Source: Phycisphaerae bacterium
GTDB taxonomy: Bacteria; Planctomycetota; Phycisphaerae; Phycisphaerales; Phycisphaeraceae
Reading direction: 5' to 3'
Length of the DNA: 64,000 nt
NCBI GenBank assembly: GCA_030432595.1
Contig: JAUIGU010000020.1
Location: forward strand, 8,144-72,143
Shown piece after piece: positions 22,235 through 46,872 of the stretch; positions within the stretch are counted from its first letter, which is position 1, and each line of letters opens with the position of its first letter. The notes under the pieces were generated by a model that saw only the letters and a list, made by a program, of their open reading frames with translations, did no database searches and was not told where the DNA came from. The position numbers were made by a program, and so were the translations under genes.

Positions 22235-22338
22235 TTCGGAAATCCGTTGAGCCCATTCGTTTCGTTTTGTCGCCTTCGAGGTTGAGGGCCGCGGTTCGGT
22301 GGGTCCTCTGCAAACTGAACTTCAACCGGAGACTCGGC

Positions 22339-27134: not shown

Positions 27135-27283
27135 AGCGGGCCTCGGCAGGTGTTGAACGTTTGAAAGAGCCGGCGGTTGGGCGAGGGAGGGCACCCGACG
27201 CGCCGCCCCGGGTCATGGAGCCATGCGACGCTCTGTGGTGCCGGACCCATTAGGAATGTCCCCAGGTTTTTGACCCCTTTGCG

Positions 27284-31046: not shown

Positions 31047-31212
31047 ATCGTCTTGACCGGATGCCGCTTCGGCCTGCGACGGGTAACTGGCTCCACGTCA
31101 AATCACCGTGTGGCTTTTGACGGATTGTCACAAACGTCGCATATGTCGGAGATGTCAGGAAAAAGTCGAACGACACGTTTGACTTGTCCGCGATGAATCC
31201 GATGGTTGGGGT

Positions 31213-31851
31213 GTGATCAGCAACCACCCCGAAACGACAGACGATGCCCAGACGCCACGAGGGCAGAAGCCCGGCCGAACGTTGACCACCGGCCAGATCG
31301 CCGCGTATTGCCGTGTGAACTACCGGACGGTCTTGCGGTGGATCAAGGCGGATCGGTTGCCGGCCCATCAACTCCCCGGTCGCGGAGACCACCGCGTCGA
31401 AGCCTCGGACTTCGTGGCGTTCCTGCGCCGGCACCGCATGCCCGTCCCGATCGAATTCCTGAAGCGCTCGAATCAGGTCCTGATCGTGGACGATGATCCG
31501 CAGATGGCTTCGAGTATCCGGCGCGTCTTGAAGCGTGCCGGGTTTCAGACGCAGGTCGCTCCCAACGGCTTCCAGGCGGGCGCGATGCTCGGTTCGTTCG
31601 AACCCCGTTTGGTCGTGTTGGACCTGAAGATGCCGGGCATCGGCGGGCTGGACGTCCTGCGTTTCATCCGTGAACAGGCGAGCTACCACGACGTCAAGGT
31701 TTTGATCGTTTCGGGTCAGAGCGACGCGGAACTCGTGGCCGCGGTCGAGGCCGGCGCGGACGACGCACTGGCCAAGCCATTTGCCAGCGATGCCCTGGTC
31801 GAGAAGGTGCGTCGCCTGACGGACGGTCCGTTGCTCGGGAAAGCGGGCTGA
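31213..31851 (+). CDS. Response regulator with N-terminal excisionase/MerR-like HTH
   Basis: The HTH LTTGQIAAYCRVNYRTVLRWIKADRLPAH is followed by a receiver domain VLIVDDDPQM...LVVLDLKMPGIGG...ALAKPF. GTG start. Confidence 0.85.
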   Translation: MISNHPETTDDAQTPRGQKPGRTLTTGQIAAYCRVNYRTVLRWIKADRLPAHQLPGRGDHRVEASDFVAFLRRHRMPVPIEFLKRSNQVLIVDDDPQMASSIRRVLKRAGFQTQVAPNGFQAGAMLGSFEPRLVVLDLKMPGIGGLDVLRFIREQASYHDVKVLIVSGQSDAELVAAVEAGADDALAKPFASDALVEKVRRLTDGPLLGKAG

Positions 31852-31892
31852 GTCCGGCGGCTCGACATCAACTCTCGTGAACAGGAGCACCC

Positions 31893-32594
31893 ATGCGCGG
31901 AATCAATGAGATTCTCGGCCCCGCCCTCCGGACCGGACCTTCGGCGACAGACCTTCAGCCGACCACGGACGGCGGCGAATCGCCCGCTCAGGCGGGTCTG
32001 ATAACGGGATCGGCTGCCGCTTATACGCCGGCCAAGTGGTCAACCGGTGGCGAACCCAAGTCGATGATCAATAACGGGAGGGGCTTGATCTTCGGACCGG
32101 AGCAGACCGCTCATCCATCCGTCGCAGGCGCTCCCATGTCCCGGAAACCCCAAGTCCTTGCGATTGATGATGAAGGCCATCAACTGGCCTCCGTGCGTCG
32201 CGTGCTCAGACGCTCGGGCATCGAGGTCACCTGCGCCACCGGCGGTGCCAAAGCGCTGCGGCTGACCGCCTCGCGCCGGCCCGACCTGATTCTGGTCGAC
32301 GTGAGCATGCCCGGCATGTCGGGGCATGAGTTCGTTCGCCGCTTCCGCAAGCAGGAACGAGAGCTGCACGCTCGATCCGAGCCCTGTGTCCTGCCGGTGC
32401 CCGTGATCTTTGTGTCGGGGCGTTCCGGCTTGAGCCATCGGCTCTCAGGGCTGGACGCGGGGGGCATCGATTACATCGTCAAGCCGATCGTCCCAGAGGA
32501 CCTTCGCGCCCGCGTTCGAACCCATCTCCGGTGGGCTCGGAGTCAGCAGGAACACGTTCACACTTTTGTCGCCCCCGTCGGCGCGGCGGCCTGA
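31893..32594 (+). CDS. Stand-alone receiver (REC) protein
   Basis: The receiver domain runs from VLAIDDEGHQ through DLILVDVSMPGMSG to IVKPI. The first 80 or so codons are low complexity. The alternative start ATG 32136 (MSRKPQ) gives a canonical REC-only protein. Confidence 0.75.
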   Translation: MRGINEILGPALRTGPSATDLQPTTDGGESPAQAGLITGSAAAYTPAKWSTGGEPKSMINNGRGLIFGPEQTAHPSVAGAPMSRKPQVLAIDDEGHQLASVRRVLRRSGIEVTCATGGAKALRLTASRRPDLILVDVSMPGMSGHEFVRRFRKQERELHARSEPCVLPVPVIFVSGRSGLSHRLSGLDAGGIDYIVKPIVPEDLRARVRTHLRWARSQQEHVHTFVAPVGAAA

Positions 32595-32612
32595 GTGAAA
32601 TGGAGCCATGGC

Positions 32613-33164
32613 ATGAAAGGCATCGTCTTCACCGAGTTCATCGCGCTGGTCGAGGACAAGTTCGGGCTCGAGGTCGCGGATACCGTGCTCGGTGCCTGCC
32701 CGCTCGATTCCGGCGGCGCCTACACCGCGGTCGGCACCTACGACCACGGCGAGATCCTGCAACTGGTCTCCAAACTATCCGACGTGACCGGCGTCGATGT
32801 GCCGACCCTCGTCGAGACCTTCGGCCAGCACCTGTTCGGGACGCTGGCCACGGCCCACCCGTCCTTCCTGCAAGAGGTGGGCGGGACCTTTGATTTCCTC
32901 GAGCGGATCGACAACCACATCCACGTCGAGGTCCGCAAGCTCTACCCGGACGCGGAGTTGCCAACGTTCAAGTTCCGTCGTGACGGCGACGACCGGTTCG
33001 AGATGGCGTACCGCTCGTCGAGGCCGTTCGCCCACTTGGCCGTCGGTCTCATCCGCGGGTGTGCCGGACATTTCGGCGAAGACATCGACATCGAACACAT
33101 CGACGAGTCGGGCGGTGTCGGGAACGCCGCGACCTTCATCCTGAACCGGAAGGCCGCCGCATGA
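32613..33164 (+). CDS. H-NOX (heme-nitric oxide/oxygen binding, HNOB) sensor protein
   Basis: MKGIVFTEFIALVEDKFG is a typical H-NOX N-terminus. The proximal His lies in NHIHVEV (His102/104). The Y-x-S-x-R heme-propionate motif is present as YRSSR (133-137). GGAG lies 7 nt upstream of the ATG. Confidence 0.85.
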   Translation: MKGIVFTEFIALVEDKFGLEVADTVLGACPLDSGGAYTAVGTYDHGEILQLVSKLSDVTGVDVPTLVETFGQHLFGTLATAHPSFLQEVGGTFDFLERIDNHIHVEVRKLYPDAELPTFKFRRDGDDRFEMAYRSSRPFAHLAVGLIRGCAGHFGEDIDIEHIDESGGVGNAATFILNRKAAA

Positions 33165-34201
33165 CGGACCCGGCCGTCCTCCAGCGTCGGTTCGATCGCG
33201 AGCGCGCCGCCCGCCAAGAGGCGGAACGCCTGCTCGAGGCGAAGTCGCGCGAGTTGTTCCTCGCGCACACCGAGCTGAAAGCGCAGTTCGAAGAGCTCCA
33301 GTCGGCGCATGACCAGCTCCGCCGGGCGCAGGAGCAGGCACTTCAGGCCGAAAAGCTTGCTTCGATCGGGCAGCTCGCCGCGGGTGTCGCCCACGAGATC
33401 AACACGCCGCTGGGCTTTGTCATCTCGAACCTGAACACGCTGAGCGAGTACGGGTCCGACCTGCGACGCGTCTTCGATCTGCTGAATCAGGACGCACCGC
33501 AGACGTCCCGCTCCTCGAATCAGACGGAATGGCTACAGGGCGTGCGGGACGCGTGCAACGAAGTCGATCTGGGCTTCGTCCTGGGCGACCTGCGGGACCT
33601 GGTCGGCGAGTCGATCGAGGGGGCACAGCGTGTGCGGCAGATCGTTGCCGACTTAATGAACTTTTCGAAGATGTCGAACGATGCGGACTCGGTGGTGAGC
33701 CTCAACGCGCTCATCGAGCAGACCGTTCGCGTGGCCGTCAACGGCGCCGCCGACGATGTCCATGTGACCTATGAACTCGGTGAAGTGGGTCCGGTCCGAT
33801 GCCGTGAAGGCCAGGTCTCTCAGGTGGTCATGAACCTCGCCGCCAACGCGATCGAGGCGCTCGACGGCGGCGGCACGATCACGGTCCGGTCGGGCACCAC
33901 CCAAAGCGGTGCCTGGTTCGAGATCCAGGACTCGGGCGTCGGGATCGCGAATGAGCAACTCGGCCGCATCTTCGACCCGTTCTACACGACCAAGGACGTC
34001 GGGCACGGCACGGGGATGGGGCTCAGCCAGGCCTACCGCGTCGTCGAGGACCACGGCGGAACCATCACCGTTCGCAGCGCCGTCGGGCGGGGAACCACCT
34101 TCCGGGTGGAGCTGCCGCTCGGGGGCGCAAGCGCCGAGGACGCGAACGGGCAACCCCGCGAACAGAAACTCAGTGCGGCCACTGCAGGAGCCCCGTCATG
34201 A
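33161..34201 (+). CDS. Soluble H-NOX-associated histidine kinase (coiled coil-HisKA-HATPase)
   Basis: Its ATG overlaps the H-NOX stop (ATGA at 33161). H-box [14 protein letters not shown], and G-boxes DSGVGI and GTGMGLS. No TM segment. Confidence 0.9.
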   Translation: MTDPAVLQRRFDRERAARQEAERLLEAKSRELFLAHTELKAQFEELQSAHDQLRRAQEQALQAEKLASIGQLAAGVAHEINTPLGFVISNLNTLSEYGSDLRRVFDLLNQDAPQTSRSSNQTEWLQGVRDACNEVDLGFVLGDLRDLVGESIEGAQRVRQIVADLMNFSKMSNDADSVVSLNALIEQTVRVAVNGAADDVHVTYELGEVGPVRCREGQVSQVVMNLAANAIEALDGGGTITVRSGTTQSGAWFEIQDSGVGIANEQLGRIFDPFYTTKDVGHGTGMGLSQAYRVVEDHGGTITVRSAVGRGTTFRVELPLGGASAEDANGQPREQKLSAATAGAPS

Positions 34202-35562
34202 ACGATGACAGCATCTTTTCGACCGAAGCGCTCGACGCGCACGGCAACCCGTTCAAGGTCTTGATCGTGGACGACAGCGCGGTCTGCCGGAACGCGCTGA
34301 AGAAATGTCTGGAGCAGTACGGGTTCCACGTCATCGCGCTGTCGGACAGCCGCGAGGTGGTCACGGGCGCCAAGCGCGAGCGCCCGACCATCATCCTCAC
34401 CGATGTCCAGATGCCCGAGATGGACGGCTTTGACGTGTGCATCGCGGTCAAGGACGACCCGGAGACGAAGGATATCCCGGTGCTGTTCGTGACGTCCGAC
34501 GACCGGCCGGAGCACAAGCTCTGCGGGTTCGAGGCCGGCGGAGCCGACTTCATCGCCAAGGGCGCGGACACGCTCGAGGTGATTGCGCGGGTGCGGACCC
34601 ACGTGCGGATTGCGTCGCTGCAGAACGAGCTCCGCGATAAGCTCAACGCGATCCAGGAACACGCCGAGCGGGAGCGTGAACTCCGTCAGCAGATCGAGGC
34701 GCAACAGACGCAGATGCTGCAGAACGAGAAGATGGCGTCGATCGGGCAGTTGGCCGCGGGCGTGGCACACGAGATCAACAACCCGATCGGCTTCATCTCT
34801 TCGAACCTCAACACGCTGGCGGAATACGCCGGCGACATCAAAGACGCTGTGGGGGCTCTGCTCGGCGTACACGAATCCCTGCGGGACCGCAGCCCCGGCG
34901 TGCGGGAGAAGTGGGAAGCCGCGGACGGCGTGATCGAGCGGGTCGATCTTCAGTTCCTGCTCGACGACCTGACCGACGTCGTGACCGAGTCGGTGGACGG
35001 TGCCGACCGTGTGCGCCAGATCGTGGCGGACCTCAAGGACTTTTCGCACGTTGACACGCCGGACCTCACGGTTGAGGACATCAACGTCCTGATCGAGCGC
35101 ACCCTGAACGTCGCGCACAACGAGACGAAGTACAAGGCCGAGGTCAAGACCGAGTTCGGCGACCTCCCGCCGGTGCCGTGCTACGGCGGCAAGCTTGCGC
35201 AGGTGGTGCTCAACCTGGTCGTCAACGCCGCCCAGGCGATCGAAGACCACGGGACGATCACCGTCGCGTCCGGGACCGCCGGCCGCAACGTCTGGATCGA
35301 AGTCCGCGACACCGGCTGCGGCATCCCGGAAGAAAACCTCAAACGCATCTTCGACCCCTTCTTCACCACCAAGGACGTCGGCAAGGGGACCGGGCTGGGG
35401 CTGCACCTGGCCTACCAGATCATCCAGTCGCACGAAGGACGGATCACGGCCCGGAGCACCGTCGGCGAGGGCACGACCTTCCGCATCGAGATCCCCAAGG
35501 AAGGCCCCAGCGACGCGAACACCTGCCCCGAACCGGAGAACGCCATTGACCAAGCTGCTTGA
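34198..35562 (+). CDS. REC-histidine kinase hybrid (N-terminal receiver, HisKA, HATPase)
   Basis: ATGA overlap at 34198. Receiver: VLIVDDSAV...[14 protein letters not shown]-box [20 protein letters not shown] in the ATPase domain. Confidence 0.9.
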
Positions 35563-36391
35563 ACAACCGGCCTCCCGCCGAGGCGTGACCCCCGCGGCCG
35601 AGGATCGGCCCCGCCTGCTCCTGGTCGACGACGAGCCGAGCATTCTCTCTGCGCTCAAACGTCTCCTGCGCCGTGAGGGCTACGAGATCCTCACCGCCGA
35701 CTCGGGCCCGCGTGCGCTGGAGATTCTGGACCAGACGCAGGTGGACGTGGTCATGACCGACTTCCGCATGCCCGAGATGACCGGGACGGAATTGCTCAAG
35801 CGGGTTCACGAGCGCTGGCCGGACACCAAGCGCATCGTCCTGAGCGGATACTCCGAGGTGACGGCCGTCCTCGACGCCATCAACAGCGGCGCGATCTACA
35901 AATACCTCAACAAGCCGTGGAACGACGAAGAACTCAAACTCCACCTCAAGCGTGCCGTCGAGCAGCACCGACTGGAATCGGCCAACCTCCGTTTGATCGA
36001 CGAAGTCGAACGGCAGAACGAACAGCTCCGCGAACTGAACGCCCGGCTGGACCGGCGCGCCGCCGACGCCAACCTGGGCCTGGCCGTCTCGCAGGCCATG
36101 ATGGAGCGCGTCGCGGCGTTGGTCCTCGGCGTGGACCGCAACGGCCTCGTTGTCGGCGCGTTCGGCAAGGTCAACGGGCTGCTCGAACCCGACCGTGAAC
36201 TCATCAGCGTTCCGTTGAGTCAGGTGCTTCCTCAACCGATGCAAGGCGCACTCCCGGATTTGGGGGCCACCGATGAACCGATGAACGGTCGATTCACGAT
36301 GCGGGAACGCGAAGTTCAGTGGCGGTCGACGCCTTACCACGCCGACGGCGAAGTGGCCGGCCACGTGCTGACGCTGTGGGAGGCGCTCTGA
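35546..36391 (+). CDS. Response regulator (RpfG-type receiver) with coiled coil and uncharacterised C-terminal domain of about 100 aa
   Basis: LLLVDDEPSILSALKRLLRREGYEILTA...VVMTDFRMPEMTG...YLNKPWNDEEL. The start is uncertain: TTG 35546 overlaps the upstream stop, and the track ORF start at 35195 lies inside the preceding gene. Confidence 0.75.
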   Translation: MTKLLEQPASRRGVTPAAEDRPRLLLVDDEPSILSALKRLLRREGYEILTADSGPRALEILDQTQVDVVMTDFRMPEMTGTELLKRVHERWPDTKRIVLSGYSEVTAVLDAINSGAIYKYLNKPWNDEELKLHLKRAVEQHRLESANLRLIDEVERQNEQLRELNARLDRRAADANLGLAVSQAMMERVAALVLGVDRNGLVVGAFGKVNGLLEPDRELISVPLSQVLPQPMQGALPDLGATDEPMNGRFTMREREVQWRSTPYHADGEVAGHVLTLWEAL

Positions 36392-36393
36392 CC

Positions 36394-37584
36394 ATGGTTG
36401 CCGCGCAAACCACATCACGTCCCGGCCCCCTGACCGGCCGGATCGAGTCGCTGCCGCCGCTTCCGCGGGTCGTCCCCGAGATCCTGCGGGTCGCCGCCCG
36501 AAGCGACGCCTGCGCTGCCGACCTCGCCGAGGTCATCGACCGCGACCCGGCCATCGCCGGGAAGGTGCTGCGGGTGGCCAACTCGCCCTTTTTCGGCGCG
36601 GCCAACGACATTACGGACACCACTCGTGCCGTGGTCCGCCTGGGCATCACCACCATCCAAAACCTGGTCATCGGGCTGGGAACGGCCGACGCGTTCGGCG
36701 CGGGCCCCGCTTCATCACCGGCCCACAGGAACCTCTGGCACCACGCCGTTGCGACCGCCGCCGCCGCCGACCTCGTCGCCCGCCGCGTCCGGTACCACCG
36801 CCCCGAAGAAGCGCTTCTCGCCGGGCTGCTGCACGACATCGGCCAACTCGCCATGCTCATGTGGAACGCCGACGCCTTCGAGGAAGTCAGCCGCGACGAC
36901 CCCTCGAACGGCACGGGTTTCCTGACGCGCGAGCGCCGCCGTTTCGGCTCGGACCACACCGAGGTCGGCGACCGCCTGCTCGAACACTGGGGCCTGCCCG
37001 ATGTCCTGCGCGTCGTGGCCCGAGACCACCACCGTCGAGGGTCTGACGCGAAGTCCGACCTGTTGTCACTGGTAATCTTCGCCGACACGCTCAGCCATCA
37101 CCTCGGCATCGGATTCGATTTCACGGTCGGTTGGCCCGAGCGCGGCCGCGACGCGATGGCCGCCCTCGGGCTGTCTTCCGACGCCTTAATGGAGATCGCC
37201 GCGGCCCTGCCCAACCACGTCCGCGCGGCCGAGCAGATGTTGGGGCAGCGTCACCGACGCCCCGACGGGGCCACCGCACGAGGCGGCCGTGTTCGCTGGG
37301 TGTCTCGCGGTGGTGAAGCGCCATCGCCGATGCACCAGTTCATGATCGAATCGGAGGGCCTCGCGTGGGTGTCCGAATCTTCCTCGGAACCACCGTCGGA
37401 CCGCAACGGCGATGACCTGCTGGTCTTCGTGGATGCGCCGCCGGAACCGATCCCGAACCCGTGCGTCCTGCTTGAGCCCGACCGACACGACCGCCGTTAC
37501 GAGCCCGGCCGGGGCCTCTGCCGGATCCCTTTCAACTTCAGCGCATTCGACCTGCGTTGGGCACGCGAGGTGCTTAGCCGATGA
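36394..37584 (+). CDS. HDOD domain-containing signalling protein
   Basis: LPPLPRVVPEILRVAARSDACAADLAEVIDRDPAIAGKVLRVANSPFFG...LWHHAVATAAAADLVA...AGLLHDIGQLAML is typical HDOD. ATG 36394 lies 3 nt after the upstream stop. Confidence 0.8.
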   Translation: MVAAQTTSRPGPLTGRIESLPPLPRVVPEILRVAARSDACAADLAEVIDRDPAIAGKVLRVANSPFFGAANDITDTTRAVVRLGITTIQNLVIGLGTADAFGAGPASSPAHRNLWHHAVATAAAADLVARRVRYHRPEEALLAGLLHDIGQLAMLMWNADAFEEVSRDDPSNGTGFLTRERRRFGSDHTEVGDRLLEHWGLPDVLRVVARDHHRRGSDAKSDLLSLVIFADTLSHHLGIGFDFTVGWPERGRDAMAALGLSSDALMEIAAALPNHVRAAEQMLGQRHRRPDGATARGGRVRWVSRGGEAPSPMHQFMIESEGLAWVSESSSEPPSDRNGDDLLVFVDAPPEPIPNPCVLLEPDRHDRRYEPGRGLCRIPFNFSAFDLRWAREVLSR

Positions 37585-38927
37585 ATTCAACCGAACCGAA
37601 CCGCGAACGTCCCACCGTCCTCATCGTCGATGACGAGCCGGGCATCCTGCGGGCGATCCAACGCACGCTCCGTCGCGAGGGCTACAACGTCGAGACCGCC
37701 GAGGGCGGCCGCGCGGCCATCGCGTTCCTCGAGCGGAATCCGATCGACGTCATCGTCTGCGATCAACGCATGCCCGATGTGGCCGGACCCGAGGTGCTGG
37801 CCAAAGCGTACGAGCACCACCCCGACGCGTTCCGCATCACCCTCACGGGATACACCGACCTCGAAGCGGCGCAGAAGTCCATCAACGAAGGCCGCGTCAA
37901 TCAGTTCTTGATGAAGCCGTGGAACGACGACCACCTGAAGCGGTGCGTCGCCGACGGCGTCCGGGCGCATCGGCTCATCATTGAAAACCGAGAACTCGAA
38001 GCCCAGGTCCGTGAGCAGAACGCCAAGCTCGAAGCATGGAACCAGGAGCTCGAGCAGGCCGTCAAAGACCGCACCCGGAAGCTCGAAGCCCAGAACGCGC
38101 AGCTCGACAAACTCGTGCAGTTCTTCCAGAGCATGCTCCGCGACACGGTCGGGGTGCTTGCGGCGATGCTCGAGATGGCCAGCCCCGCGCTGGGCATCCA
38201 CTGCAAACGTGTCTCCGGCCTGGCCAAGCAGTTGGGGCAACACCTCGGCGTCGACGAGAACATGATCCGCGACTTGGAACTCGCCGCCTGGCTGCACGAC
38301 TTGGGCAAGATGGCGTCGCTGACGAGGCAAAACGCCGCGGACACGCCCCAAGCCACCGGCCGGGATACCCGTGTCAACGTCTCGGAAGCCGGATACCACA
38401 TCCTGTCCCGCATCGGCGGCTTCAAGCGCATCGCCGAGGGCGTCCGTTACCAATCCGAGAAATACGACGGCTCGGGCGGTCCCAAGCGGATGCGCGGGGA
38501 GGCGATCCCCCTGGTCTCCCGGGTCATCGCGATCGTTGATGCCTACGACAACGCCGTCTACGCCGGCAGCGACCCGTCCAAGCCCGACCACGCCGCGGCG
38601 GAGAAGCTCCTGCAACGCAACGCCGGCCGGGCGTTTGACCCCAAGCTGGTGCGCGCCTTCCTGGATTCTCTCCGCGCGGCGGCCTCCGAAGCGCCCAGCG
38701 AAGTCGAGGTGGAAATCTCCCCCCGTCAGGCACGCCCCGGCATGACCCTGGCCCGCGACCTGGTGAACTCCGACAAGGTGCTGCTCGCCAAGCAAGGCAC
38801 CAAACTCACCGAAGCCATGGTCCAGAAGATCCGGGACATGGCCAGCGGCGACTGCATCCTCAGCACCCTCAGCGTCATGGTGCCCCAGTTGCCCGAAGAA
38901 ACACCAACCAATGCGCGGGCCGCGTAG
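37581..38927 (+). CDS. Response regulator with HD-GYP-family domain (apparently degenerate: QS-E-x2-DGSGGP)
   Basis: ATGA overlap at 37581. Receiver: VLIVDDEPGIL...VIVCDQRMPDVAG...LMKPWNDDHL. HD motif WLHDLGK (38295-38300). The motif region QSEKYDGSGGPKRMRGEAIPL (38451-38483) sits where the family consensus is HHE-x2-DG-x-GYP. Confidence 0.85.
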   Translation: MNSTEPNRERPTVLIVDDEPGILRAIQRTLRREGYNVETAEGGRAAIAFLERNPIDVIVCDQRMPDVAGPEVLAKAYEHHPDAFRITLTGYTDLEAAQKSINEGRVNQFLMKPWNDDHLKRCVADGVRAHRLIIENRELEAQVREQNAKLEAWNQELEQAVKDRTRKLEAQNAQLDKLVQFFQSMLRDTVGVLAAMLEMASPALGIHCKRVSGLAKQLGQHLGVDENMIRDLELAAWLHDLGKMASLTRQNAADTPQATGRDTRVNVSEAGYHILSRIGGFKRIAEGVRYQSEKYDGSGGPKRMRGEAIPLVSRVIAIVDAYDNAVYAGSDPSKPDHAAAEKLLQRNAGRAFDPKLVRAFLDSLRAAASEAPSEVEVEISPRQARPGMTLARDLVNSDKVLLAKQGTKLTEAMVQKIRDMASGDCILSTLSVMVPQLPEETPTNARAA

Positions 38928-39347
38928 CGGCAGTGCCAAACGGGTCGATTCCTTTTTGGTGACCGGATGACGGACCGGGGTCGCCGTCTAGCTTTCCGCC
39001 GAGCCGGGTCGGCGGCCCGCAACAAACTGTCTGAGGAACCGTATGCGCTGCCCGTCGTGATTCGCCTCGGTCGGGCCTGACCGTGATGTACCGCCTGCTC
39101 AAACGTAATGAATCACGGTTGAGGCGACGCATTCACTGAGGGGCGTACGGTCAACTCCTGGACAGACTGAATTAACCTCCGTCCGCCCATCCACCGACCC
39201 CGCTCGTCGTAACCGGTCGGCCTTGGTAGAATCCAGGCCTCGTCAGTATCTGGTTGGCGGCGTGCGTAGGAAAGCCCGCCGTCCGCCCAGAAACCTGACG
39301 CATCGCGTCATCGCAAGCCGCGGATTGGCAAGGGCTTGCGAAGATTT

Positions 39348-39420
<73 letters not shown>

Positions 39421-39649
39421 TTTCGTTCTCTTCATATTGACAGAATCGGTTCCGGGTTCCGAAGTGTTTTCCGGGTGAGTCGATCCGAGGCCATGCCTTG
39501 GTATCCGGTCAATATGAAAGCGCCATGGCCTGGTTCCCACGCCAAGGTCCGGCTCGGTTCCGGTGATGGGGGCGGGCCCGACCGAATGCAGGTCAGTGTC
39601 CGCGAGTGTTGCGTTGCGAACGTGAGTCGTTGTAACGCGAGGTGTTGCT

Positions 39650-41905
39650 TCACGCGCGCATCGCAACATCGCGGCGTCGATTCAAGAGCGCACGCGATGG
39701 TCGGCTTGCCCCAATCGTGAACAGCACGAGAACGCTGACCGAGGCCGGCTCGGGGATCGGCGAATGCAGGCCGGTCGGTGCGGACGCGGCGCCCCAGTGC
39801 TGGAGGACTCGGTCGAGTTCGCTTTGTTCGATCACGCCGGTGGGTAGATCATTGACCCAGCCCGCCGGGATGCCGTTGACGGCCGTGTCCAGCCCCCAGT
39901 TCTGCAGCACGAGGTCGAGGTCGCCTTGCTCGACCTGGCCGTTGCCCGAGTAGTCGCCGGGCAAAACGGACGATGCGCCGAGGAGGCGGTTGGCCAGGTC
40001 CACGATCAGGCGGACGTGTTCGTTCTGCTGCGTGGTGGTGAAGGTCTGCGTGCGTGCGTTGTCATTGAAGCCGTCGGTGCCGACCTGGTCCCACCAGTCC
40101 TGGCCGAACGTGGCCTTGAACTGGTACGTGCCGACCGAATCGATCACGGCCTCGAACGTGTAGAAGCCGTCGCCGTGGGCGGTCATGTTGAAGGCGTCGT
40201 CGGCGGGGTCCCAATTGTTGGCGCCGCCGGCCGCGATCATGAAGTCGCCGACGACCTGGAGCGGGGCGGTGTCGAAGTCGATCCAGACGACGGGGTTGCC
40301 TTTGTTGTTGGTGATGCGGGTATCGACGGTGATGGTCGCGGCACCGTCGGCGTCGCCGTAGAGCGTGAGGTTGGCGTTGTTGGAGCCCAGGTCGCTGGGC
40401 GGTTGGTCGGCGGTGTCGTAGACGCGGAAGTCGTAGGCGACGTTGGCGCTGAGGTTGTTAGCGGTGACGGTGTAGACGCCGTCGGTGCCGGTCATGACCA
40501 GCGAGCTGCCGGCCGGGTCCCAGTCGGCCGGGTCGCCTTGCTCGGTCTGCAACGAGCCGGCGACGACCAGCGACGGCGTAAACGTTGCGCCCAGCACGAC
40601 GACCTCGTACGGCGCGAGCAGGCGTGTCGCGCCCAGGCTCGTGGCCTGCTCGCTGAGCAGGTCGGTCCAGTCGCCGCGCCAGCCAGCGGGGACCGAGACC
40701 TGTCGGCTCTGGCCGCGCGTGTTGACCAGGACCACGGCCTGCTCGTCGCCGTGTTGCCGGTGCAGCAGGACGACGTCGGCGGTGCTCTGGTCGTTGAGGT
40801 TGCCGTGGATCAACGCGGACGACGCGGACCGGGCGTTGAGCAGGTCGGTGTACCACGCCTCGGTGGCGGCACCGGTGTTCCAGTCGAGCGGGCTCTTGTT
40901 GAAGATGGGGATGTTCTCGTCCCAGCCGATCTCCTGGCCGGCGTAGACCAGCGGCGCGCCGCCGTAGGCCACGGTGACGGCGTAGGCGGCGAGCGAGGCT
41001 TCGACGTTGCCGAACGCGTCGGGGGGCGTTTCGTCGAAGGCGCTGAAGTCGTGGTTAGTCGTGAAGCGGAGGATTTCGGCGTCCTGCGGCACGCCGGCGT
41101 ACTCGGCGTGGTGCGCCGCGATGAGTGATGACGCCGAGGCCGACCCGTTGAACACCGCATCGACGGCGTTGTAGAAGTCCCAGCCGTAGGTCAGGTCGAA
41201 CCCGGCGTTGTAGTGATCCGTTCGGCCTCCCTCGGCGAGCATGATCAAATCGCGCGACACGCTGTTGCGGACCGCGGGCACGGCCTGCTGCCAGAAGCTG
41301 TACGGCACGAAGTCGGCGGTATCGACACGGAAGCCGTCGATGCCGACGTCGGTAACCCAGTACTTCATCTCGTTGATCATCGTCGCCCGCAGCGACGGGT
41401 TGTTGTAGTTCAGGTCCGCGACGTCGGTCCAGTTGGTCCCGGGCGGGTGGATGATGTTGCCTTGCCCGTCCTGGCTGTACCACTCGGGATGCTCGGTGAT
41501 CCAGGCGTGGTCCCAGGCGGTGTGGTTGGGGACCCAATCCATGATCACCGACAAGTCACGTTGATGGGCCTGATCGATGAGGTTCGTCAAGTCGGCGAGC
41601 GACCCGTACTCGTTGCTGACCACGCCGTGGTCCCGCACGGAATACGGCGAGCCCAGGCCGCCGACGGAGTTCACCTGCCCGACCGGGTGGATCGGCATCA
41701 GCCACACCGTGTTCGCGCCCAGCGCCTGGATCTCGTCGAGGCGTGCGCTCACGCCCGCGAGATCGCCGGCCTGGCTGAACGAGCGCAGGTTGACCTCGTA
41801 CACCACCAGGTCGCTGACGGCAGGGACCGCACGGGCGTGAGTCCCGAGCAGCCCGGCCGCGGTCAGCAGGAACAGGCGGCGCAGCCCGTGGCGTCGAAAC
41901 GTCAT
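39650..41905 (-). CDS. GH13 alpha-amylase with C-terminal bipartite carbohydrate-binding-like module, dockerin-like repeat and PEP-CTERM anchor
   Basis: Signal peptide MTFRRHGLRRLFLLTAAGLLGTHA. GH13 motifs DWVPNHT, GFRVDTADF, IMLAEG and FTTNHD. C-terminus: GDYSGNGQVEQGDLDLVLQNWG...IPEPASVSVLVLF. The 1215-aa track ORF is an artefactual extension across the next gene. Confidence 0.88.
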   Translation of the reverse strand: MTFRRHGLRRLFLLTAAGLLGTHARAVPAVSDLVVYEVNLRSFSQAGDLAGVSARLDEIQALGANTVWLMPIHPVGQVNSVGGLGSPYSVRDHGVVSNEYGSLADLTNLIDQAHQRDLSVIMDWVPNHTAWDHAWITEHPEWYSQDGQGNIIHPPGTNWTDVADLNYNNPSLRATMINEMKYWVTDVGIDGFRVDTADFVPYSFWQQAVPAVRNSVSRDLIMLAEGGRTDHYNAGFDLTYGWDFYNAVDAVFNGSASASSLIAAHHAEYAGVPQDAEILRFTTNHDFSAFDETPPDAFGNVEASLAAYAVTVAYGGAPLVYAGQEIGWDENIPIFNKSPLDWNTGAATEAWYTDLLNARSASSALIHGNLNDQSTADVVLLHRQHGDEQAVVLVNTRGQSRQVSVPAGWRGDWTDLLSEQATSLGATRLLAPYEVVVLGATFTPSLVVAGSLQTEQGDPADWDPAGSSLVMTGTDGVYTVTANNLSANVAYDFRVYDTADQPPSDLGSNNANLTLYGDADGAATITVDTRITNNKGNPVVWIDFDTAPLQVVGDFMIAAGGANNWDPADDAFNMTAHGDGFYTFEAVIDSVGTYQFKATFGQDWWDQVGTDGFNDNARTQTFTTTQQNEHVRLIVDLANRLLGASSVLPGDYSGNGQVEQGDLDLVLQNWGLDTAVNGIPAGWVNDLPTGVIEQSELDRVLQHWGAASAPTGLHSPIPEPASVSVLVLFTIGASRPSRALLNRRRDVAMRA

Positions 41906-41928
41906 ACCCACAACTCCGACCAAGCCGA

Positions 41929-43548
41929 TCAAGCGTCGCCACGCCGGCGACGCGCCGCCCACATCATCCCCGGAACGATCACCGTCAGCGCTGCGGGTTC
42001 GGGGACGTTCGCGCCCGAGAGGTTCGGCGTGGCGGTCGCGCCCCAGTTCAGCAGCACACCGTCGAGTTCTGCCTGGTCGATCAGGCCCTCGGGCAGGTCG
42101 TGGACCCAGAGCGTCGGGACGCCGTTCGCGTCGGTGTCGCGCCCCCAGTTCTGGAGCACGAGGTCGAGGTCGGCCTGCTCGACCTGACCGGAGCCGTTGT
42201 AGTCTCCGATCAGCTCGGCGACTTCGGAGAGCACGCCGAGCACCTGGTTGGCCAGATCGACGAACAGGGTGACGGCCTCGTCGGTTTCGGTGGTCTCGAA
42301 GCCGAAGGATGTGGCGTTGTCGCTGAACCCGTCGGTGCCGACCTGGTCGCCCCAGCCTTCGCCGAAGCTGGCCTTGAATTGGTATATGCCCGGGGTGGAG
42401 ATCGTCGCGTCGTAGGTGTAGTAGCCGTCGCCCTGGGCGCTCATGTTGAACAGGTCGTCGGTGGGGTCCCAGTCGGCGGCGCCGCCGGCCTCGTCCATGA
42501 AGTCGCCGACGACCTGCAGCGGCGCCGAGTCGAAGTCGACCCAGACCACGGGGTTGCCCTGGAGGTTGGTCTGGTTGGTGTCCACGGAGATGGTGGCCGA
42601 GCCGCTCGCGTCGCCGTAGAGCGTCAGGTCGTAAGGAGTGACGCGCGGGTCGCCGGCTTCGATGGGCGGGGTGCCGGCGTCGTTGTAGACGGCAAAGTCG
42701 TAGGCCGTGCCGTTGGCGAGGTTGTTCGCGGTGACGGTGTAGACGCCGCCGGACTCGATCATCAGAAGGGAACTGTTGACGACGTCGTTGTCCGCGGGGT
42801 CGCCCTGCTCGGTCTGCAGGTCGCCGGCGACGACGAAGTTGCCGAAGGGGAACGACTCGACGACCGCGCCGATCGCCCGCGCGTCCAGGTCGACGAAGAA
42901 GGTGACCTGCTGGTCGGCGGCGGAGGTGATGAAGCCGTGCGTGATCGCGTTGTTGTTGAACCCGTCGGTGCCGACCTGGTATCCCCAACCGTCGCCGGTG
43001 GTGACCTTGAACTGGTACACACCCGGCGTGCTGAGCGACGCGTCGAAGGTGTAGTAGCCGTTGCCCTGGGAGCTCATCTGGAAGGTCGGGTCGGCGGGTT
43101 CCCAGTTGGCGGCGCCGCCGGCGGCGACCATGAAGTCGCCGACGACTTGGAACGGCGCGCCGTCGAAGTTGAGCCAGGTCTGCGGGTTGCCCTGGGCGTT
43201 GGTGAGGTTGGTGTCGACGGTGATCGTGGCCGACCCGTCGGCGTCGCCGAAGAGCCGGAGGTCGGCGCCGGGCGGGTTGATCTCCGGGTCGCCCCATTCC
43301 GCGGGCGGCGTGCCTTCGTCGTCCACGATCCGGAAGTTGTAGGGCTCACCATTCAACAGGTTGTTGGCGGTGACCGTGTGGGTTCCGTCGCCCTGATCAA
43401 TCAAAATCAAAGAACTGAAGAACGGGTCCCAGTCAACGATGTCGTTTTGTTCGGTCTGCATCTCACCGGCGACGACAAACGCGGCGTGGGTCGGCGTGAC
43501 GGAGGCCAACAAGGCGAGCGCGGAAAGTCCGGTCAGCAAATGTTTCAT
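41929..43548 (-). CDS. Secreted protein with two copies of a bipartite module of about 210 aa (carbohydrate-binding-like), dockerin-like repeat and PEP-CTERM anchor
   Basis: GGAG lies 7 nt upstream of the ATG. Signal peptide MKHLLTGLSALALLASVTPTHA. Repeated VVAG.LQTEQ...TVTANNL and QVVGDFM..AGGA.NW(D/E)P...YQFK blocks. C-terminus: GDYNGSGQVEQADLDLVLQNWG...NVPEPAALTVIV. Confidence 0.8.
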   Translation of the reverse strand: MKHLLTGLSALALLASVTPTHAAFVVAGEMQTEQNDIVDWDPFFSSLILIDQGDGTHTVTANNLLNGEPYNFRIVDDEGTPPAEWGDPEINPPGADLRLFGDADGSATITVDTNLTNAQGNPQTWLNFDGAPFQVVGDFMVAAGGAANWEPADPTFQMSSQGNGYYTFDASLSTPGVYQFKVTTGDGWGYQVGTDGFNNNAITHGFITSAADQQVTFFVDLDARAIGAVVESFPFGNFVVAGDLQTEQGDPADNDVVNSSLLMIESGGVYTVTANNLANGTAYDFAVYNDAGTPPIEAGDPRVTPYDLTLYGDASGSATISVDTNQTNLQGNPVVWVDFDSAPLQVVGDFMDEAGGAADWDPTDDLFNMSAQGDGYYTYDATISTPGIYQFKASFGEGWGDQVGTDGFSDNATSFGFETTETDEAVTLFVDLANQVLGVLSEVAELIGDYNGSGQVEQADLDLVLQNWGRDTDANGVPTLWVHDLPEGLIDQAELDGVLLNWGATATPNLSGANVPEPAALTVIVPGMMWAARRRRGDA

Positions 43549-43673
43549 GGTTCATCTCCAGGCAGGTCGCGGATGAATCGTTCTGTAGGCGATTCCGAGG
43601 AAGCGACGCGCCCCCGGTTCCGGGAACGCGCCGTGGAAAGTTGTGGTCGTCCGGGCGGTCCCGGCTCCGCGGA

Positions 43674-44492
43674 TCAGGCGTTGTTTCGCGTCCGGCCCAG
43701 CAGCACGACGCCGCCAAGACCCAGGAGCGCCAGCGACGCGGGCTCGGGCACCGAGTTGAAGGTGTTGAAGTCGCCGGCCGACAGCGTGACATCGTCGAAG
43801 CCGATGTTGTTGTCGCTCACGGAGGCGTCTGCGACGCCGTGAAACTCGTTGGAGCGGAACGTCCCGATCGGGTCCAGGTAGGTGCCGACGTAGCGGAACG
43901 AGTCGCCCGGGAGCAGCCCCAGGTCGAGCATCGAGTGGCTGAACGAGTACGGGCCGCCGGCCCCGAAGCCCGCGCCGGTCGCGTTGGCGATGAACGTGTG
44001 GCTGGGCGTGTCGAGTTGGAAGAGGATCGCCAGCCCCGAGTTGATCGCCAGGCCGTAGTTGGCCCGGAACCCCGGGGCGAACGTGACGTCGGCACGCTCG
44101 GTGCCGTTGGTGGCCGAGGTGGCGGCGCGGAGTTCGTCGAAGAACGTGTCGCCGGTGTCGGTGAAGGCGGTCGTGCTCTCGAAGCCGGTCGCGCCGTTGT
44201 CGGTGTCGATGTAGAGGACGACGGCGTTGGCGCCGTCGAGGTTGCTCCCGCCGCCGGTGTTGGCGCCGACGGTCAACGTCCAGTCGAGGTTGCCCAGGGC
44301 GTCGGACGAGATGGCTAGGTCGGAGTTGGTGCCGAAGGCGTTGCCAAATCCGGAGTTGATGCCCGTGCTGGAACCGGCACCGTTGATGACGGTCGGCACC
44401 GCGACCGCGGGCGCGGCCCCCAGACCCAGGACGGCAACACCTAAAGCCACACCAAAGGCGGTACGGACGTTGCTGAGTGATCGATGAATCAT
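43674..44492 (-). CDS. PEP-CTERM-anchored secreted protein of unknown function
   Basis: GGAG lies 7 nt upstream of the ATG. It has a signal peptide and a G/S/T/N-rich body. C-terminus: SVPEPASLALLGLGGVVLLGRTR. Confidence 0.75.
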   Translation of the reverse strand: MIHRSLSNVRTAFGVALGVAVLGLGAAPAVAVPTVINGAGSSTGINSGFGNAFGTNSDLAISSDALGNLDWTLTVGANTGGGSNLDGANAVVLYIDTDNGATGFESTTAFTDTGDTFFDELRAATSATNGTERADVTFAPGFRANYGLAINSGLAILFQLDTPSHTFIANATGAGFGAGGPYSFSHSMLDLGLLPGDSFRYVGTYLDPIGTFRSNEFHGVADASVSDNNIGFDDVTLSAGDFNTFNSVPEPASLALLGLGGVVLLGRTRNNA

Positions 44493-44642: not shown

Positions 44643-45587
44643 TCAGTTGTGCGGGGTCAGGTAGACCTCCTCGAAGCTGTCGGGGCCGTGCGACGCGCCG
44701 TGGCCGTCGGCAAACGCCACGTCCATGGCGTTGTTGTGCCGGTCTTCCGATTCGTCGTTGTCGCGGATCGGGAGCTTGCCCAGCGACCAGGGCGTCTGGT
44801 AGATCGCGTCGAGCGTGCCGGGCTCGCCTTCGGTCATGAAGGTGCTCGCGGTGTACATCAGCGCCGACCCGCGGCGCATCGGCGTGCCGCTGGCGTTGGT
44901 GCGCGTCCCGCCGTCGGCGAAGAGCATGGTCGTCGTGGGCGACTCGATCAGGTCCAGGCTGCCGCCGACCGCGTCGCCGCCGACCACCTCGATGGGTTGC
45001 ACGTTCGGCCCGCCCAGCGACGGCATCCAGAACGCCCGGCCGTCTCCCTGCGGGTCCGAGTCCCAGGTCGTGACGTCCGCGTTGGGCGCGTACGAAATCG
45101 GCAGAAAGACGCCCTGGTTCGGCCCGGCGATGTTGCTGACCACCTCGTGGCCTTCTTCGTGCGGGTCGCTCGGACAGCGGAAGATCGCAGACACCTTCGG
45201 GTCGGCCGTGTCGAACTGCGCCTCGTTGTCGCCGCCCAGGTACGGCACCAGCGCGCTGGCCCAGTCCTTCATCCGGCCCTTGACGCCGGGGTACTCGGCG
45301 ATCCGCCCCGACAACTGGCCCGGGATCGGCGGCAGCCCGCTCCACGCCAGGTCGCTGCTGCTCAGCGGCACGTGGTAGTCGTGCTCGACGGCGAAGGCCT
45401 GCGCCGCCTGCCCCATCGACCGGACGTTGGCCAGGCAGCCCAGCGTCCGCGCGGCGTTGCGGGCGGCGCTCAGGGCCGGCAGCAGGATCCCGATCAGCAG
45501 GGCGATGATCGAGATCACCACCAGCAGTTCGATGAGCGTAAAGCCGGGGTTTCGCCCCACCCGCGAGGTGTGTGCCGAAGCGAGCAT
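44643..45587 (-). CDS. DUF1559 protein with prepilin-type N-terminal methylation motif and H-X9-DG motif
   Basis: GFTLIELLVVISIIALLIGILLPAL at the N-terminus. HNNAMDVAFADG (H-X9-DG) near the C-terminus. This is a family hallmark of Planctomycetota/Verrucomicrobiota. Confidence 0.88.
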   Translation of the reverse strand: MLASAHTSRVGRNPGFTLIELLVVISIIALLIGILLPALSAARNAARTLGCLANVRSMGQAAQAFAVEHDYHVPLSSSDLAWSGLPPIPGQLSGRIAEYPGVKGRMKDWASALVPYLGGDNEAQFDTADPKVSAIFRCPSDPHEEGHEVVSNIAGPNQGVFLPISYAPNADVTTWDSDPQGDGRAFWMPSLGGPNVQPIEVVGGDAVGGSLDLIESPTTTMLFADGGTRTNASGTPMRRGSALMYTASTFMTEGEPGTLDAIYQTPWSLGKLPIRDNDESEDRHNNAMDVAFADGHGASHGPDSFEEVYLTPHN

Positions 45588-45622
45588 GGTGATCAGTTCC
45601 AGAAGAAAACCAGACTTGGAAG

Positions 45623-45642
45623 ATATAACTCTTGTGTTATAT
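45623..45642. promoter_or_regulatory. AT-rich palindrome ATATAAC-N6-GTTATAT in the divergent promoter region; candidate operator for the adjacent GntR-type regulator
   Basis: Read directly. It is the only AT-rich patch in the 128-nt gap between the DUF1559 gene (-) and the GntR-type gene (+). GntR-family operators are typically short palindromes with GT/AC cores. The function is inferred. Confidence 0.35.
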
Positions 45643-45715
45643 TAACCCGTGCCGGCTCCGTGTCAAGCCCTTTGTGCCCGGCACCGTTTCCCCCGCCCGT
45701 CGGTAGGATTGATCC

Positions 45716-46804: not shown

Positions 46805-46872
46805 TCAAGTTGTTTCAGCACCGGCTCTGCAGATCCCGCCTGCCATCTCCGTAACCCTTACCGCAACCGCTT

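Follow-up and report, generated by a model that had tools for sequence, protein, structure and literature searches.

A cluster of eight head-to-tail open reading frames (ORFs), here called g1 to g8, lies on the plus strand at positions 31213–38927 of a 64,000-nucleotide stretch of DNA from a Phycisphaerae bacterium (contig JAUIGU010000020.1; the whole stretch is hereafter called the window). The cluster encodes an H-NOX protein (g3), which is predicted to be a heme-based sensor of nitric oxide (NO), two histidine kinases (g4 and g5), and a set of proteins with receiver (REC), helix-turn-helix (HTH), PAS, HDOD, and HD-GYP domains (Table 1). Comparison with related loci indicates that the cluster combines a six-gene cassette that is conserved in related planctomycetes (g1, g2, g5, g6, g7, and g8) with an H-NOX/kinase pair (g3 and g4). 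So far, the pair has been seen in this cassette in this genome only. The explanation that fits best, and that we regard as reasonably probable, would be that the cassette has gained an NO input via the H-NOX/kinase pair. An initial annotation had described the locus as a branched H-NOX operon. Synteny suggests that it is rather a six-gene cassette that also holds an H-NOX gene and a REC-less paralog of the cassette kinase.

The cassette in related Planctomycetota

The synteny comparison that the initial annotation had suggested was made with g1 as the anchor, and it identified four related Planctomycetota that carry the cassette without the H-NOX gene and g4. Their loci read HTH_17-REC, REC, REC-kinase, REC-PAS, HDOD, and REC-HD_5, with protein sizes and gene overlaps as in the window. 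These four distinct genomes or contigs include two with the full set (L170 and L172/L173) and two in which g2 is missing (L174 and L175). Besides the window's own genome, the carriers of the cassette are GCA_038747275.1, GCA_039033595.1, GCA_039815175.1, and JGI 3300003871. Full-length identities between cassette orthologs are 62%–64% for g1, 49%–52% for g2, ∼60% for g5, 54%–56% for g6, ∼44% for g7, and 48%–50% for g8. The g5-g6-g7-g8 block is repeated in two short metagenome contigs (L087 and L088). No H-NOX gene was detected by tblastn in L170, L172/L173, L174, or L175, and only one kinase is present in each. At exactly the place that g3 and g4 occupy in the window, the stop of g2 and the start of g5 overlap in the relatives.

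A search anchored on the H-NOX protein returned 6,159 homologs, the best of which outside this organism has 59% identity. It also yielded 80 genomic loci across many phyla, about a dozen of them from Planctomycetota. Most of the 80 have only the H-NOX and kinase pair in common with the window. The same is true of the loci of the closest H-NOX homologs (L003, L005, and L007), and H-NOX-anchored synteny was set aside as uninformative on the cassette.

Origin of the H-NOX-adjacent kinase

The g4 protein begins with ∼65 amino acids of coiled coil before its DHp domain (which serves dimerization and histidine phosphotransfer) and has no sensor domain. In layout it resembles HnoK, the kinase of the Shewanella oneidensis Hno system described below: It is a sensor-less soluble kinase that adjoins hnoX, and the g4 start and g3 stop share an ATGA overlap. 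In contrast, the only input domain of g5 is an N-terminal receiver, and full-length identity between g5 and the lone kinase of L170, L172, and L174 is ∼60%. The cores of the two window kinases share 50.5% identity over 285 amino acids, and 5 of the 19 positions that follow the phospho-acceptor His in helix alpha-1 of the DHp domain differ between them.

The lineage of g4 was examined in a neighbor-joining tree of 73 kinase cores and 265 columns, and bootstraps (n = 200) were counted after removal of duplicate contigs of the same organism. The H-NOX-adjacent kinases of at least 17 other genomes form one large separate clade, and g4 lies outside it. The g4 protein groups on a long branch with g5 and its orthologs. 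This clade comprises cassette kinases only in 148 of 200 bootstraps, and no foreign H-NOX-linked kinase enters it in 200 of 200. Moreover, the g4 core is 49%–51% identical to the g5 lineage, compared with 31%–40% to H-NOX-adjacent kinases elsewhere. Both the tree and the identities therefore place g4 outside the lineage of H-NOX-adjacent kinases. On sequence grounds, g4 is a REC-less paralog of g5. Most simply, these data would mean that the gene for the cassette kinase was duplicated, that the upstream copy lost its receiver, and that a separately derived H-NOX gene was placed before it.

The gene junctions were inspected for traces of such an event. At the g3/g4 junction stands the 12-mer GCCGCCGCATGA, which is found unchanged at the g2/g5 junction of the relatives and is unique in the window, where 0.06 copies are expected by chance. 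Although it looked like a recombination scar, it also contains a GGAG-type ribosome-binding context that is shared more loosely upstream of g3 and g5. The identity fits a duplication, but it is counted as no more than supportive because it overlaps this ribosome-binding context. The initiation regions of g3 (GGAGCCATGGCATGA, 32597–32616), g4 (GGAAGGCCGCCGCATGA, 33146–33164), and g5 (GGAGCCCCGTCATGA, 34184–34201) are similar to each other and to that at the relatives' g2/g5 junction (GGAGCCGCCGCATGA), and both g2 and g3 end in Ala-Ala-Ala-stop. These similarities may be a trace of duplication or insertion, or they may simply reflect a shared ribosome-binding context.

The opposite history would be one of loss, in which g3 and g4 disappeared from the four relatives and the eight-gene cluster is ancestral. 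The position of g4 outside the clade of g5 and its orthologs, if taken at face value, puts the duplication before the genomes diverged. In addition, two-kinase H-NOX clusters exist in other Planctomycetota (for example, L064 of Stieleria and L043 of Rubripirellula). However, the pair is absent in 4 of 4 informative relatives, and the relatives' g2/g5 junction (CCGGAGCCGCCGCATGA) matches the g3/g4 junction of the window rather than the g4/g5 junction, a match that would not arise if g3 and g4 had simply been deleted. The long g4 branch also fits accelerated change after a duplication. Furthermore, H-NOX proteins of other planctomycetes (46%–52% identity) resemble the one in the window no more closely than those of other phyla do (54%–59%). 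We consider loss an unlikely explanation for the distribution of the pair.

Arrangement of the eight genes

A single NCBI contig has entries for the exact protein sequences of all of g1–g8. Two further sequencing runs yielded contigs that agree with the window at 100% identity (L002 over positions 31811–35373 and L001 over positions 36655–39383). Because these contigs run across g2–g5 and g7–g8, the arrangement is not an assembly artifact.

Eight co-directional genes in this domain order had been proposed in the initial annotation, and the ORFs stand at the coordinates given there. Pfam searches, which that annotation had called for, bear out the order, and the HNOB, HisKA, HATPase_c, Response_reg, HDOD, and HD_5 models were all matched. 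The reported ATGA overlaps at 33161, 34198, and 37581 are present in the ORF coordinates, as is a TTG start for g6 at 35546 that lies inside the end of g5 and overlaps its stop by 17 nt. An identical 17-nt overlap is found in the orthologous loci L170 and L172. Two spacings required correction. The g3 gene starts at ATG 32613, which makes the gap after g2 18 nt rather than the 0 nt reported at 32594/32595, and the gap between g6 and g7 is 2 nt rather than 3 nt. All junctions from g2 to g8 are tight or overlapping. A promoter scan found no sigma-70-like promoter inside the cluster, and a terminator scan of the cluster found intrinsic-terminator-like sites at the level expected by chance.

The residues required for phosphotransfer appear to be intact, as had been proposed from the Asp context of the receivers and the H-boxes of the kinases. 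The translations confirm D-x-x-M-P in 5 of 5 receivers, all of which retain the acidic pair, the phospho-acceptor Asp, the Ser/Thr, and the Lys. Both g4 and g5 have the H-box H-E-I-N-T/N-P together with complete N, G1, F, and G2 boxes.

The end of the cluster is marked by a gene for tRNA-Gly (anticodon CCC) that lies ∼420 nt downstream of g8, at 39348–39420 on the plus strand. Apart from this tRNA gene, the 720 nt at 38928–39649 are non-coding. A role for the locus as a defense system was considered and rejected, as PADLOC gave only weak generic HTH and HD matches.

The H-NOX protein

The g3 protein matches Pfam HNOB across model positions 1–163, with a score of 140 bits against a cutoff of 25.5. 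Its nearest relatives of solved structure are 6OCV (169 bits, E = 7.6e-49), 6BDE (150 bits), and 6BDD. All H-NOX family members in the alignment begin with MKG, and the start of g3 was therefore placed at ATG 32613 rather than at GTG 32595. Identification of the gene as an H-NOX that retains the proximal His and the Y-x-S-x-R motif and is paired with a kinase had been the core of the initial annotation, and it is upheld by the full-length HNOB match and by the alignments.

In an alignment of 18 members, the retained g3 residues H104, P117, and Y133-x-S135-x-R137 are invariant or nearly so. H104, P117, Y133, S135, and R137 correspond to H102, P115, Y131, S133, and R135 of Tt H-NOX, whose alignment range agrees with the structure-database match. 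Residues F9, L74, and L142 of g3 align with W9, N74, and Y140 of the Tt protein, which form its O2-stabilizing network, and the distal pocket of g3 is non-polar. A non-polar distal pocket is a mark of NO-selective H-NOX proteins. We predict that g3 is an H-NOX heme sensor of the NO-selective type.

A different function is conceivable for g3, which could sense O2 or redox state, or could be heme-free like the H-NOX of Vibrio cholerae (Vc). Heme-free redox sensing through thiols or zinc is documented for Vc H-NOX (PMC7108781), and the closest solved structure, 6OCV, falls in the same H-NOX subgroup as g3. In contrast to what such a function would predict, the proximal His, the Y-S-R residues, and P117 are intact in g3, and the distal pocket is without the Tyr/Asn/Trp network that stabilizes O2. 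The C-terminal part of g3 has a single Cys, which makes a Cys-rich zinc site unlikely. A sensor of something other than NO is thus the least probable of the alternatives that we weigh here, and we judge it to be quite improbable.

The output proteins g6, g7, and g8

The C-terminal region of g6 had been entered as an unknown domain. The family profile, the Pfam matches of relatives, and an AlphaFold model indicate that the last 95–130 residues are a divergent PAS domain of a rare family. An exhaustive HMMER search of 1.84 billion cluster representatives gave 26 matches to g6, nearly all of them 280–300 amino acids long with the same layout, and a word-indexed homology search with the g6 C-terminus gave no matches. 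The family profile matches the cytoplasmic PAS domain of CitA (5FQ1, E = 3e-5) and the PAS domain of DosP (8e-5). Weak Pfam PAS matches occur in 20 of 22 family members; the window copy, which is the most divergent, gives none. An alignment-based AlphaFold model (pLDDT 89.4), which supersedes a poor single-sequence model (pLDDT 54.5), consists of a receiver, a helix of 62 residues, and a sheet of five strands in which strand 2 is followed by short helices. Foldseek with the full-length model returned matches to receiver domains only. In its receiver and linker, g6 is a paralog of g8 (45% identity). A metagenome locus scan with REC-PAS alignments recovered mostly receiver-only relatives, and it served for kinase sampling and for locus L127 (see below).

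The g7 protein is an HDOD protein whose best solved relatives are MmoQ (3LJX) and Geobacter 3HC1. In an alignment with 3HC1, a di-iron HDOD protein, the W-H, LLHD, SDH, and DHH positions are all kept. The di-metal site of HDOD proteins has been described (PMC12075610), and g7 carries a candidate for such a site. The last 160 residues of g7 (37099–37581) and the last 80 residues of g8 (38676–38924) have no Pfam match even at E = 1. These C-terminal tails are conserved in the cassette orthologs and may be interaction surfaces.

The HD-GYP domain of g8 had been called apparently inactive, and the alignment agrees with this assignment in that three ligand His residues and the Tyr of GYP are lost. 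The reference was PmGH (4MCW), whose metal ligands fall on the columns that are invariant among the proteins with a complete catalytic set. Where PmGH has H250, H276, and H277, g8 has V, Q, and S, and GYP is replaced by GGP. H189, H221, D222, and D305 (PmGH numbering) are retained. The resulting pattern is A-H-HD-V-QSE-GGP-D in g8 versus E-H-HD-H-HHE-GYP-D in PmGH. A complete catalytic set is present in PmGH, PA4781, V-cGAP3, and many proteins of the fetched loci, and it is absent from g8 and from its orthologs, which are more degenerate than g8 (HD to HE). From these residues, the first metal site of g8 could survive and the second could not, and hydrolysis of cyclic di-GMP (c-di-GMP) is unlikely. 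The NCBIfam model for NosR, NF053512, scores 376.4 bits against g8 over model positions 1–412 of 422, which is below its cutoff of 400.

A metagenome REC-HD-GYP protein (L129, 9992–11275) is degenerate in the same manner. It keeps the HD dyad and the last Asp, and its residues at H250/H276/H277 are I, Q, and G. The pattern common to this protein and g8 hints at a distinct subfamily that keeps one metal site.

Pfam searches detected no GGDEF or EAL domain in g1–g8 or in any other likely gene of the 64 kb window, as the initial annotation had noted for the cluster. The output might be unrelated to c-di-GMP: It could consist of transcription via g1 and some other process via the PAS and HDOD proteins, with g8 as a relic phospho-sink. 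In keeping with this idea, neither the cluster nor the window holds a GGDEF domain, an EAL domain, or a complete HD-GYP domain, and the orthologs of g8 are still more degenerate than g8. Of the HDOD proteins whose role is known, SadB serves as an adaptor in proteolysis and GsmR regulates motility, both without acting as phosphodiesterases. However, the degenerate REC-HD-GYP proteins HnoD and NosR, which are linked to NO sensors, are tied to c-di-GMP phenotypes, and a REC-HD-GYP protein with the complete catalytic set is encoded in related H-NOX clusters of planctomycetes. Conservation of g8 over its full length including the tail (48%–50% identity) also argues for a selected function. An output wholly apart from c-di-GMP seems somewhat unlikely to us.

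The genes g1 and g2 and their control region

The HTH domain of g1 is a DNA-binding domain of the MerR/excisionase type, and the protein has an HnoC-like architecture in which an N-terminal HTH is followed by a C-terminal receiver. Some homologs of g1 also match Pfam MerR (PF00376). The closest homologs, which are response regulators of Planctomycetota, are 62%–65% identical, and 765 homologs share the same architecture. The start of g1 is uncertain. GTG 31213 falls in a block that is non-coding in relatives, and TTG 31282 is the alternative.

In all four relatives, a 9-bp inverted repeat with a 12-nt spacer precedes the g1 ortholog. It reads TCGCATTTG-N12-CAAATGCGA or TCGCATTTG-N12-TGAATGCGA, is followed directly by TTTGGGTTGTTCGTCGC, and can be generalized to TCGCATTTG-N12-(C/T)(A/G)AATGCGA. 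This strongly conserved element, which is not repeated in the gap that follows g1, probably serves the cassette as operator and promoter. Upstream of g1 in the window, an inverted-repeat tool at default stringency found nothing. The imperfect palindrome listed in Table 1, which lies between two half-site-like sequences, is present in a single copy in the window. A palindrome as good occurs in 2.8% of shuffles of the region and in ∼7% of real 166-nt windows, and the sequence is thus modestly unusual and only a lead.

On a metagenome contig (L127, 8174–12352), the gene for a g1 homolog with 56% identity precedes genes for a kinase of the same type, a REC-HDOD protein, and a further REC protein, without an H-NOX gene. 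Its upstream region is AT-rich and has repeated TGACAG and TGTCAT motifs, not the TCGCATTTG repeat.

The first 81 codons of g2 as listed (31893–32135) have GC contents of 0.62/0.63/0.69 at the three codon positions, compared with ∼0.7/0.45/0.85 in the other genes. The orthologs of g2 are 163–200 amino acids long and 49%–52% identical to it. Because of the flat codon-position GC of the extension and the short orthologs, the N-terminal extension is probably non-coding, and the real start probably lies at 32064–32136. This correction leaves ∼210–280 nt of non-coding DNA after g1, and a gap of 130–270 nt follows g1 in every relative.

Comparison with known NO signaling systems

In the Hno system of S. 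oneidensis, the kinases HnoK and HnoS converge on three regulators, which are HnoB, a REC-EAL enzyme, HnoC, an HTH-REC repressor, and HnoD, a REC-degenerate HD-GYP protein (PMC6335343; bioRxiv 10.1101/2021.11.05.467447). NO-bound H-NOX inhibits its kinase, and phosphorylation de-represses HnoC (PMC8738867). HnoC is of the MerR type (PMC9938897) and acts as a repressor on promoter palindromes from which phosphorylation releases it (PMC8738867, PMC9938897). HnoD carries QLE in place of HHE (bioRxiv 10.1101/2021.11.05.467447), and degenerate REC-HD-GYP proteins act via protein contacts (bioRxiv 10.1101/2021.11.05.467447; PMC12570481). In Burkholderia, NosR is a REC-degenerate HD-GYP protein that receives phosphate from NosK, an NO-regulated kinase with the motif H-E-I-N-N, and H-E-x-x-N/T marks bifunctional kinase/phosphatases (PMC12570481).

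The initial annotation held that the output logic of the cluster cannot be derived from known models. This is overstated, since two kinases, an HTH-REC protein, and a REC-degenerate HD-GYP protein are found in Hno and NosRPK. Our comparison with Shewanella Hno is based on published descriptions and architecture rather than on sequence alignment. Both systems have a stand-alone H-NOX beside a sensor-less kinase and a second kinase that feeds, or in the window is predicted to feed, the same regulators. Both also have an N-terminal MerR-type HTH-REC protein and a REC-degenerate HD-GYP protein in which HHE has become Q-x-E (QLE in HnoD and QSE in g8). The integration of two inputs and the branching to several receivers have already been described for Shewanella.

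There are nonetheless clear differences. Shewanella has a REC-EAL protein of the HnoB type, and none was found in the cluster or in the 64 kb window. The components are united in one cluster in the window and are divided between two loci in Shewanella. The second kinase takes its input from an N-terminal receiver (g5) rather than from a NosP partner. Moreover, the window has REC, REC-PAS, and HDOD proteins beyond the Shewanella set, g8 keeps the HD dyad that HnoD has lost, and g4, unlike kinases of the HnoK type, does not belong to the lineage of H-NOX-adjacent kinases.

The nosRPK genes of Burkholderia pseudomallei and Burkholderia thailandensis are alike in combining a soluble sensor-less kinase with H-box H-E-I-N-N, an auxiliary heme NO sensor that acts in trans, and a REC-degenerate HD-GYP regulator, whose model g8 matches nearly over its full length. 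In contrast, the sensor there is a FIST-type NosP rather than an H-NOX, the NosR motifs are HG and GTP rather than the HD and GGP of g8, and three genes stand against the five receivers and two kinases of the window.

Other Planctomycetota have H-NOX clusters of their own (L064 of Stieleria marina K23_9, L043 of Rubripirellula, and L034 and L072 of Pirellulaceae). Like the window cluster, these are multi-gene, co-directional, and tightly joined, with an H-NOX gene followed by kinases that have the same H-box, and with HDOD and REC-HD-GYP proteins. They differ in that HDOD is fused to a receiver, one REC-HD-GYP protein is catalytically complete, and the H-NOX-adjacent kinase has a PAS domain and belongs to the separate kinase clade. 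They also lack an HTH_17-REC protein and a REC-PAS protein of the g6 type. Loci that combine H-NOX, one or more kinases, REC-HDOD, and REC-HD-GYP occur as well in a Rhodothermaceae and in some Proteobacteria, and none of these has an HTH_17-REC or REC-PAS gene. The initial annotation knew of no characterized planctomycete H-NOX pathway, and no paper that mentions both H-NOX and Planctomycetes was found in the literature searched.

The S. marina K23_9 cluster (L064, 9443–17227 of NZ_CP036526.1) has a gene for a BLUF blue-light sensor directly upstream of its H-NOX gene. It also encodes two kinases, a REC-HDOD protein, a weak and probably degenerate REC-HD_5 protein, a single-domain REC protein, and a catalytically complete REC-HD-GYP protein. 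This cluster may be a light-plus-NO version of the circuit, with an HD-GYP protein in place of the Shewanella EAL protein.

Among HDOD regulators, Xanthomonas GsmR, Methylococcus MmoQ (3LJX), and Desulfovibrio DVU0330 share the HDOD domain with g7. However, g7 has no receiver of its own, and it differs further from these proteins by its C-terminal region of ∼160 amino acids. No paper linking HDOD with H-NOX was found in the literature searched, and no function of HDOD in an NO pathway is established. The cluster departs from the known schemes in that no catalytic c-di-GMP enzyme was found in it or in the 64 kb window, a REC-kinase stands where they have a kinase controlled by NosP, a stand-alone HDOD protein and a rare protein of the REC-PAS type are present, and the partner kinase is not of the HnoK lineage.

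A proposed signaling scheme

If the cassette has gained an NO input, then the events and signal flow could be as follows. The cassette kinase gene would have been duplicated, the upstream copy without a receiver would have become g4, and the H-NOX gene g3 would have come to lie before g4, between g2 and g5. NO would bind the ferrous heme of g3. By analogy with HnoX and HnoK, g3 would then bind the sensor-less g4 and alter its balance of autophosphorylation and phosphatase activity, with inhibition as the likely effect. The g4 kinase would address the receivers of g5, which are those of g1, g2, g6, and g8, and possibly the receiver of g5 itself. This sharing is proposed because the DHp specificity helices of g4 and g5 are almost identical. 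NO would in this way be integrated with whatever upstream phospho-signal reaches the g5 receiver, and a cascade and convergence may both operate.

On the output side, g1 would be a repressor controlled by phosphorylation, by analogy with HnoC, and g2 would be a phosphate sink or connector. The genes g6, g7, and g8 are always adjacent, and their junctions suggest that they are translationally coupled. Their products would form a non-catalytic or weakly catalytic protein-interaction module that modulates a c-di-GMP enzyme or other target encoded elsewhere. Within this module, g6 and g7 could work as a split REC-(PAS)-HDOD protein, which is proposed because the HDOD-fused receiver of other H-NOX clusters most resembles the g6 receiver.

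A simpler wiring is a linear cascade in which g4 phosphorylates only the g5 receiver, and g5 alone feeds g1, g2, g6, and g8; the relatives would then use an unlinked kinase. The receiver is the only input domain of g5 in every cassette, which implies that some upstream kinase must exist, and a kinase gene directly upstream would supply it. The g5 receiver is also the most divergent of the five. However, the near-identical DHp alpha-1 helices of g4 and g5 predict common partners, and a kinase rarely has its own N-terminal receiver as its main substrate. A strictly linear cascade is therefore not what we expect, and we rate it as unlikely.

Several points weigh against a gain of an NO input as set out above. 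The g4 kinase branches outside g5 and its orthologs, and the duplication could therefore predate the split of the genomes, with the relatives losing g3 and g4. The tree is a neighbor-joining tree on 265 columns with g4 on a long branch. Since g4 is outside the H-NOX-adjacent clade, its interaction with g3 is presumed solely on the basis of their neighboring positions and ATGA overlap. Heme binding, the NO response, co-transcription, and every phosphotransfer step are predictions from sequence. The gap of ∼210–280 nt after g1 may make g1 a separate transcription unit, and the window has diverged at the position homologous to the conserved operator of the relatives. Finally, the search for c-di-GMP enzymes that might be targets of g6, g7, and g8 covered the 64 kb window only.

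Two linked readings go further, and jointly they are offered as a tentative possibility: The cassette would be an undescribed six-gene signaling device, and the window would record a natural H-NOX plug-in event. As a device, the coupled g6, g7, and g8 products may form a phosphorylation-controlled complex that acts without a canonical c-di-GMP enzyme. As a plug-in event, H-NOX may have been wired to a kinase of foreign lineage via duplication of the cassette kinase and deletion of the receiver.

Features and flanking genes

Table 1. Features of the g1–g8 locus in the window and of the conserved element in relatives
Feature	Position	Strand	Matches and remarks
g1, HTH_17-REC	31213..31851	+	HTH_17 residues 24-75 (39.8 bits), Response_reg residues 89-200 (91.8 bits)
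g2, single-domain receiver	31893..32594	+	Response_reg residues 88-209 (82.4 bits)
g3, stand-alone H-NOX	32613..33164	+	HNOB PF07700, 140 bits, E = 8.5e-41, full model
g4, soluble histidine kinase, sensor-less	33161..34201	+	HisKA + HATPase_c; H-box HEINTP; complete CA domain (for catalysis and the binding of ATP)
g5, REC, coiled coil, DHp, CA kinase	34198..35562	+	Response_reg + HisKA + HATPase_c
g6, REC, long coiled-coil helix, divergent PAS (residues ∼190-281)	35546..36391	+	Pfam Response_reg only
g7, stand-alone HDOD + ∼160 aa C-terminus	36394..37584	+	HDOD PF08668, 186 bits
g8, REC, coiled coil, degenerate HD-GYP, ∼80 aa tail	37581..38927	+	Response_reg + HD_5 (87 bits)
Candidate operator region upstream of g1	31137..31203	+	Half-site-like TCGCATATG (31137-31145) and GAATCCGAT (31195-31203)
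Imperfect palindrome AAGTCGAACG-ACA-CGTTTGACTT	31163-31185	+	Between the two half-site-like sequences
Conserved non-coding element upstream of g1 orthologs	L170 7209-7260; L172 9918-9970; L174 2727-2780; L175 9919-9972		

Two pairs of genes for a PF07638-type extracytoplasmic function (ECF) sigma factor and a large TPR Ser/Thr kinase lie upstream of the cluster, at 19301–19885/16534–19317 on the minus strand and at 27284–27898/27969–31046 on the plus strand. A stretch of 166 nt separates the second pair from the cluster. Such pairing of ECF sigma factors with Ser/Thr kinases is typical of Planctomycetota. Between the two pairs, an 886-amino acid protein with ten RTX nonapeptide matches (HemolysinCabind, 196 bits) is encoded at 24534–27194 on the minus strand, and beside it is an 812-amino acid ORF (22057–24495) without a Pfam match.

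Downstream of the cluster, 39650–44492 on the minus strand is a cluster for secreted glycan-active proteins, among them a PEP-CTERM protein, an alpha-amylase that carries pullulanase X25 domains, and another X25 protein. The ORF at 39650–43297 looks over-extended, with the amylase match in 39650–41800. Next to it, 44643–48258 encodes a DUF1559/N_methyl protein, a GntR regulator, and another amylase. The PF07638 ECF sigma factors and Ser/Thr kinases, the DUF1559/N_methyl and PEP-CTERM proteins, and the named Planctomycetota among the closest g1 homologs all accord with the planctomycete-like character that had been ascribed to the genome.

Implications

To our knowledge, H-NOX signaling has been dissected only in a few Proteobacteria. 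H-NOX clusters were found here in about a dozen Planctomycetota genomes, none of them characterized, and the locus would give a first handle on H-NOX signaling in this phylum. The Shewanella multi-component scheme is extended, and current models are not overturned. A lineage-conserved cassette that ties the poorly understood HDOD and degenerate HD-GYP domains to a defined chemical signal would offer a route to assaying those domains. Cassettes with and without H-NOX would form a natural before-and-after pair for studying how a trans-acting sensor acquires a kinase and how two kinases share receivers. If the plug-in event is true, then H-NOX can recruit non-cognate kinases, and the birth of a sensor-kinase interface could be studied directly.

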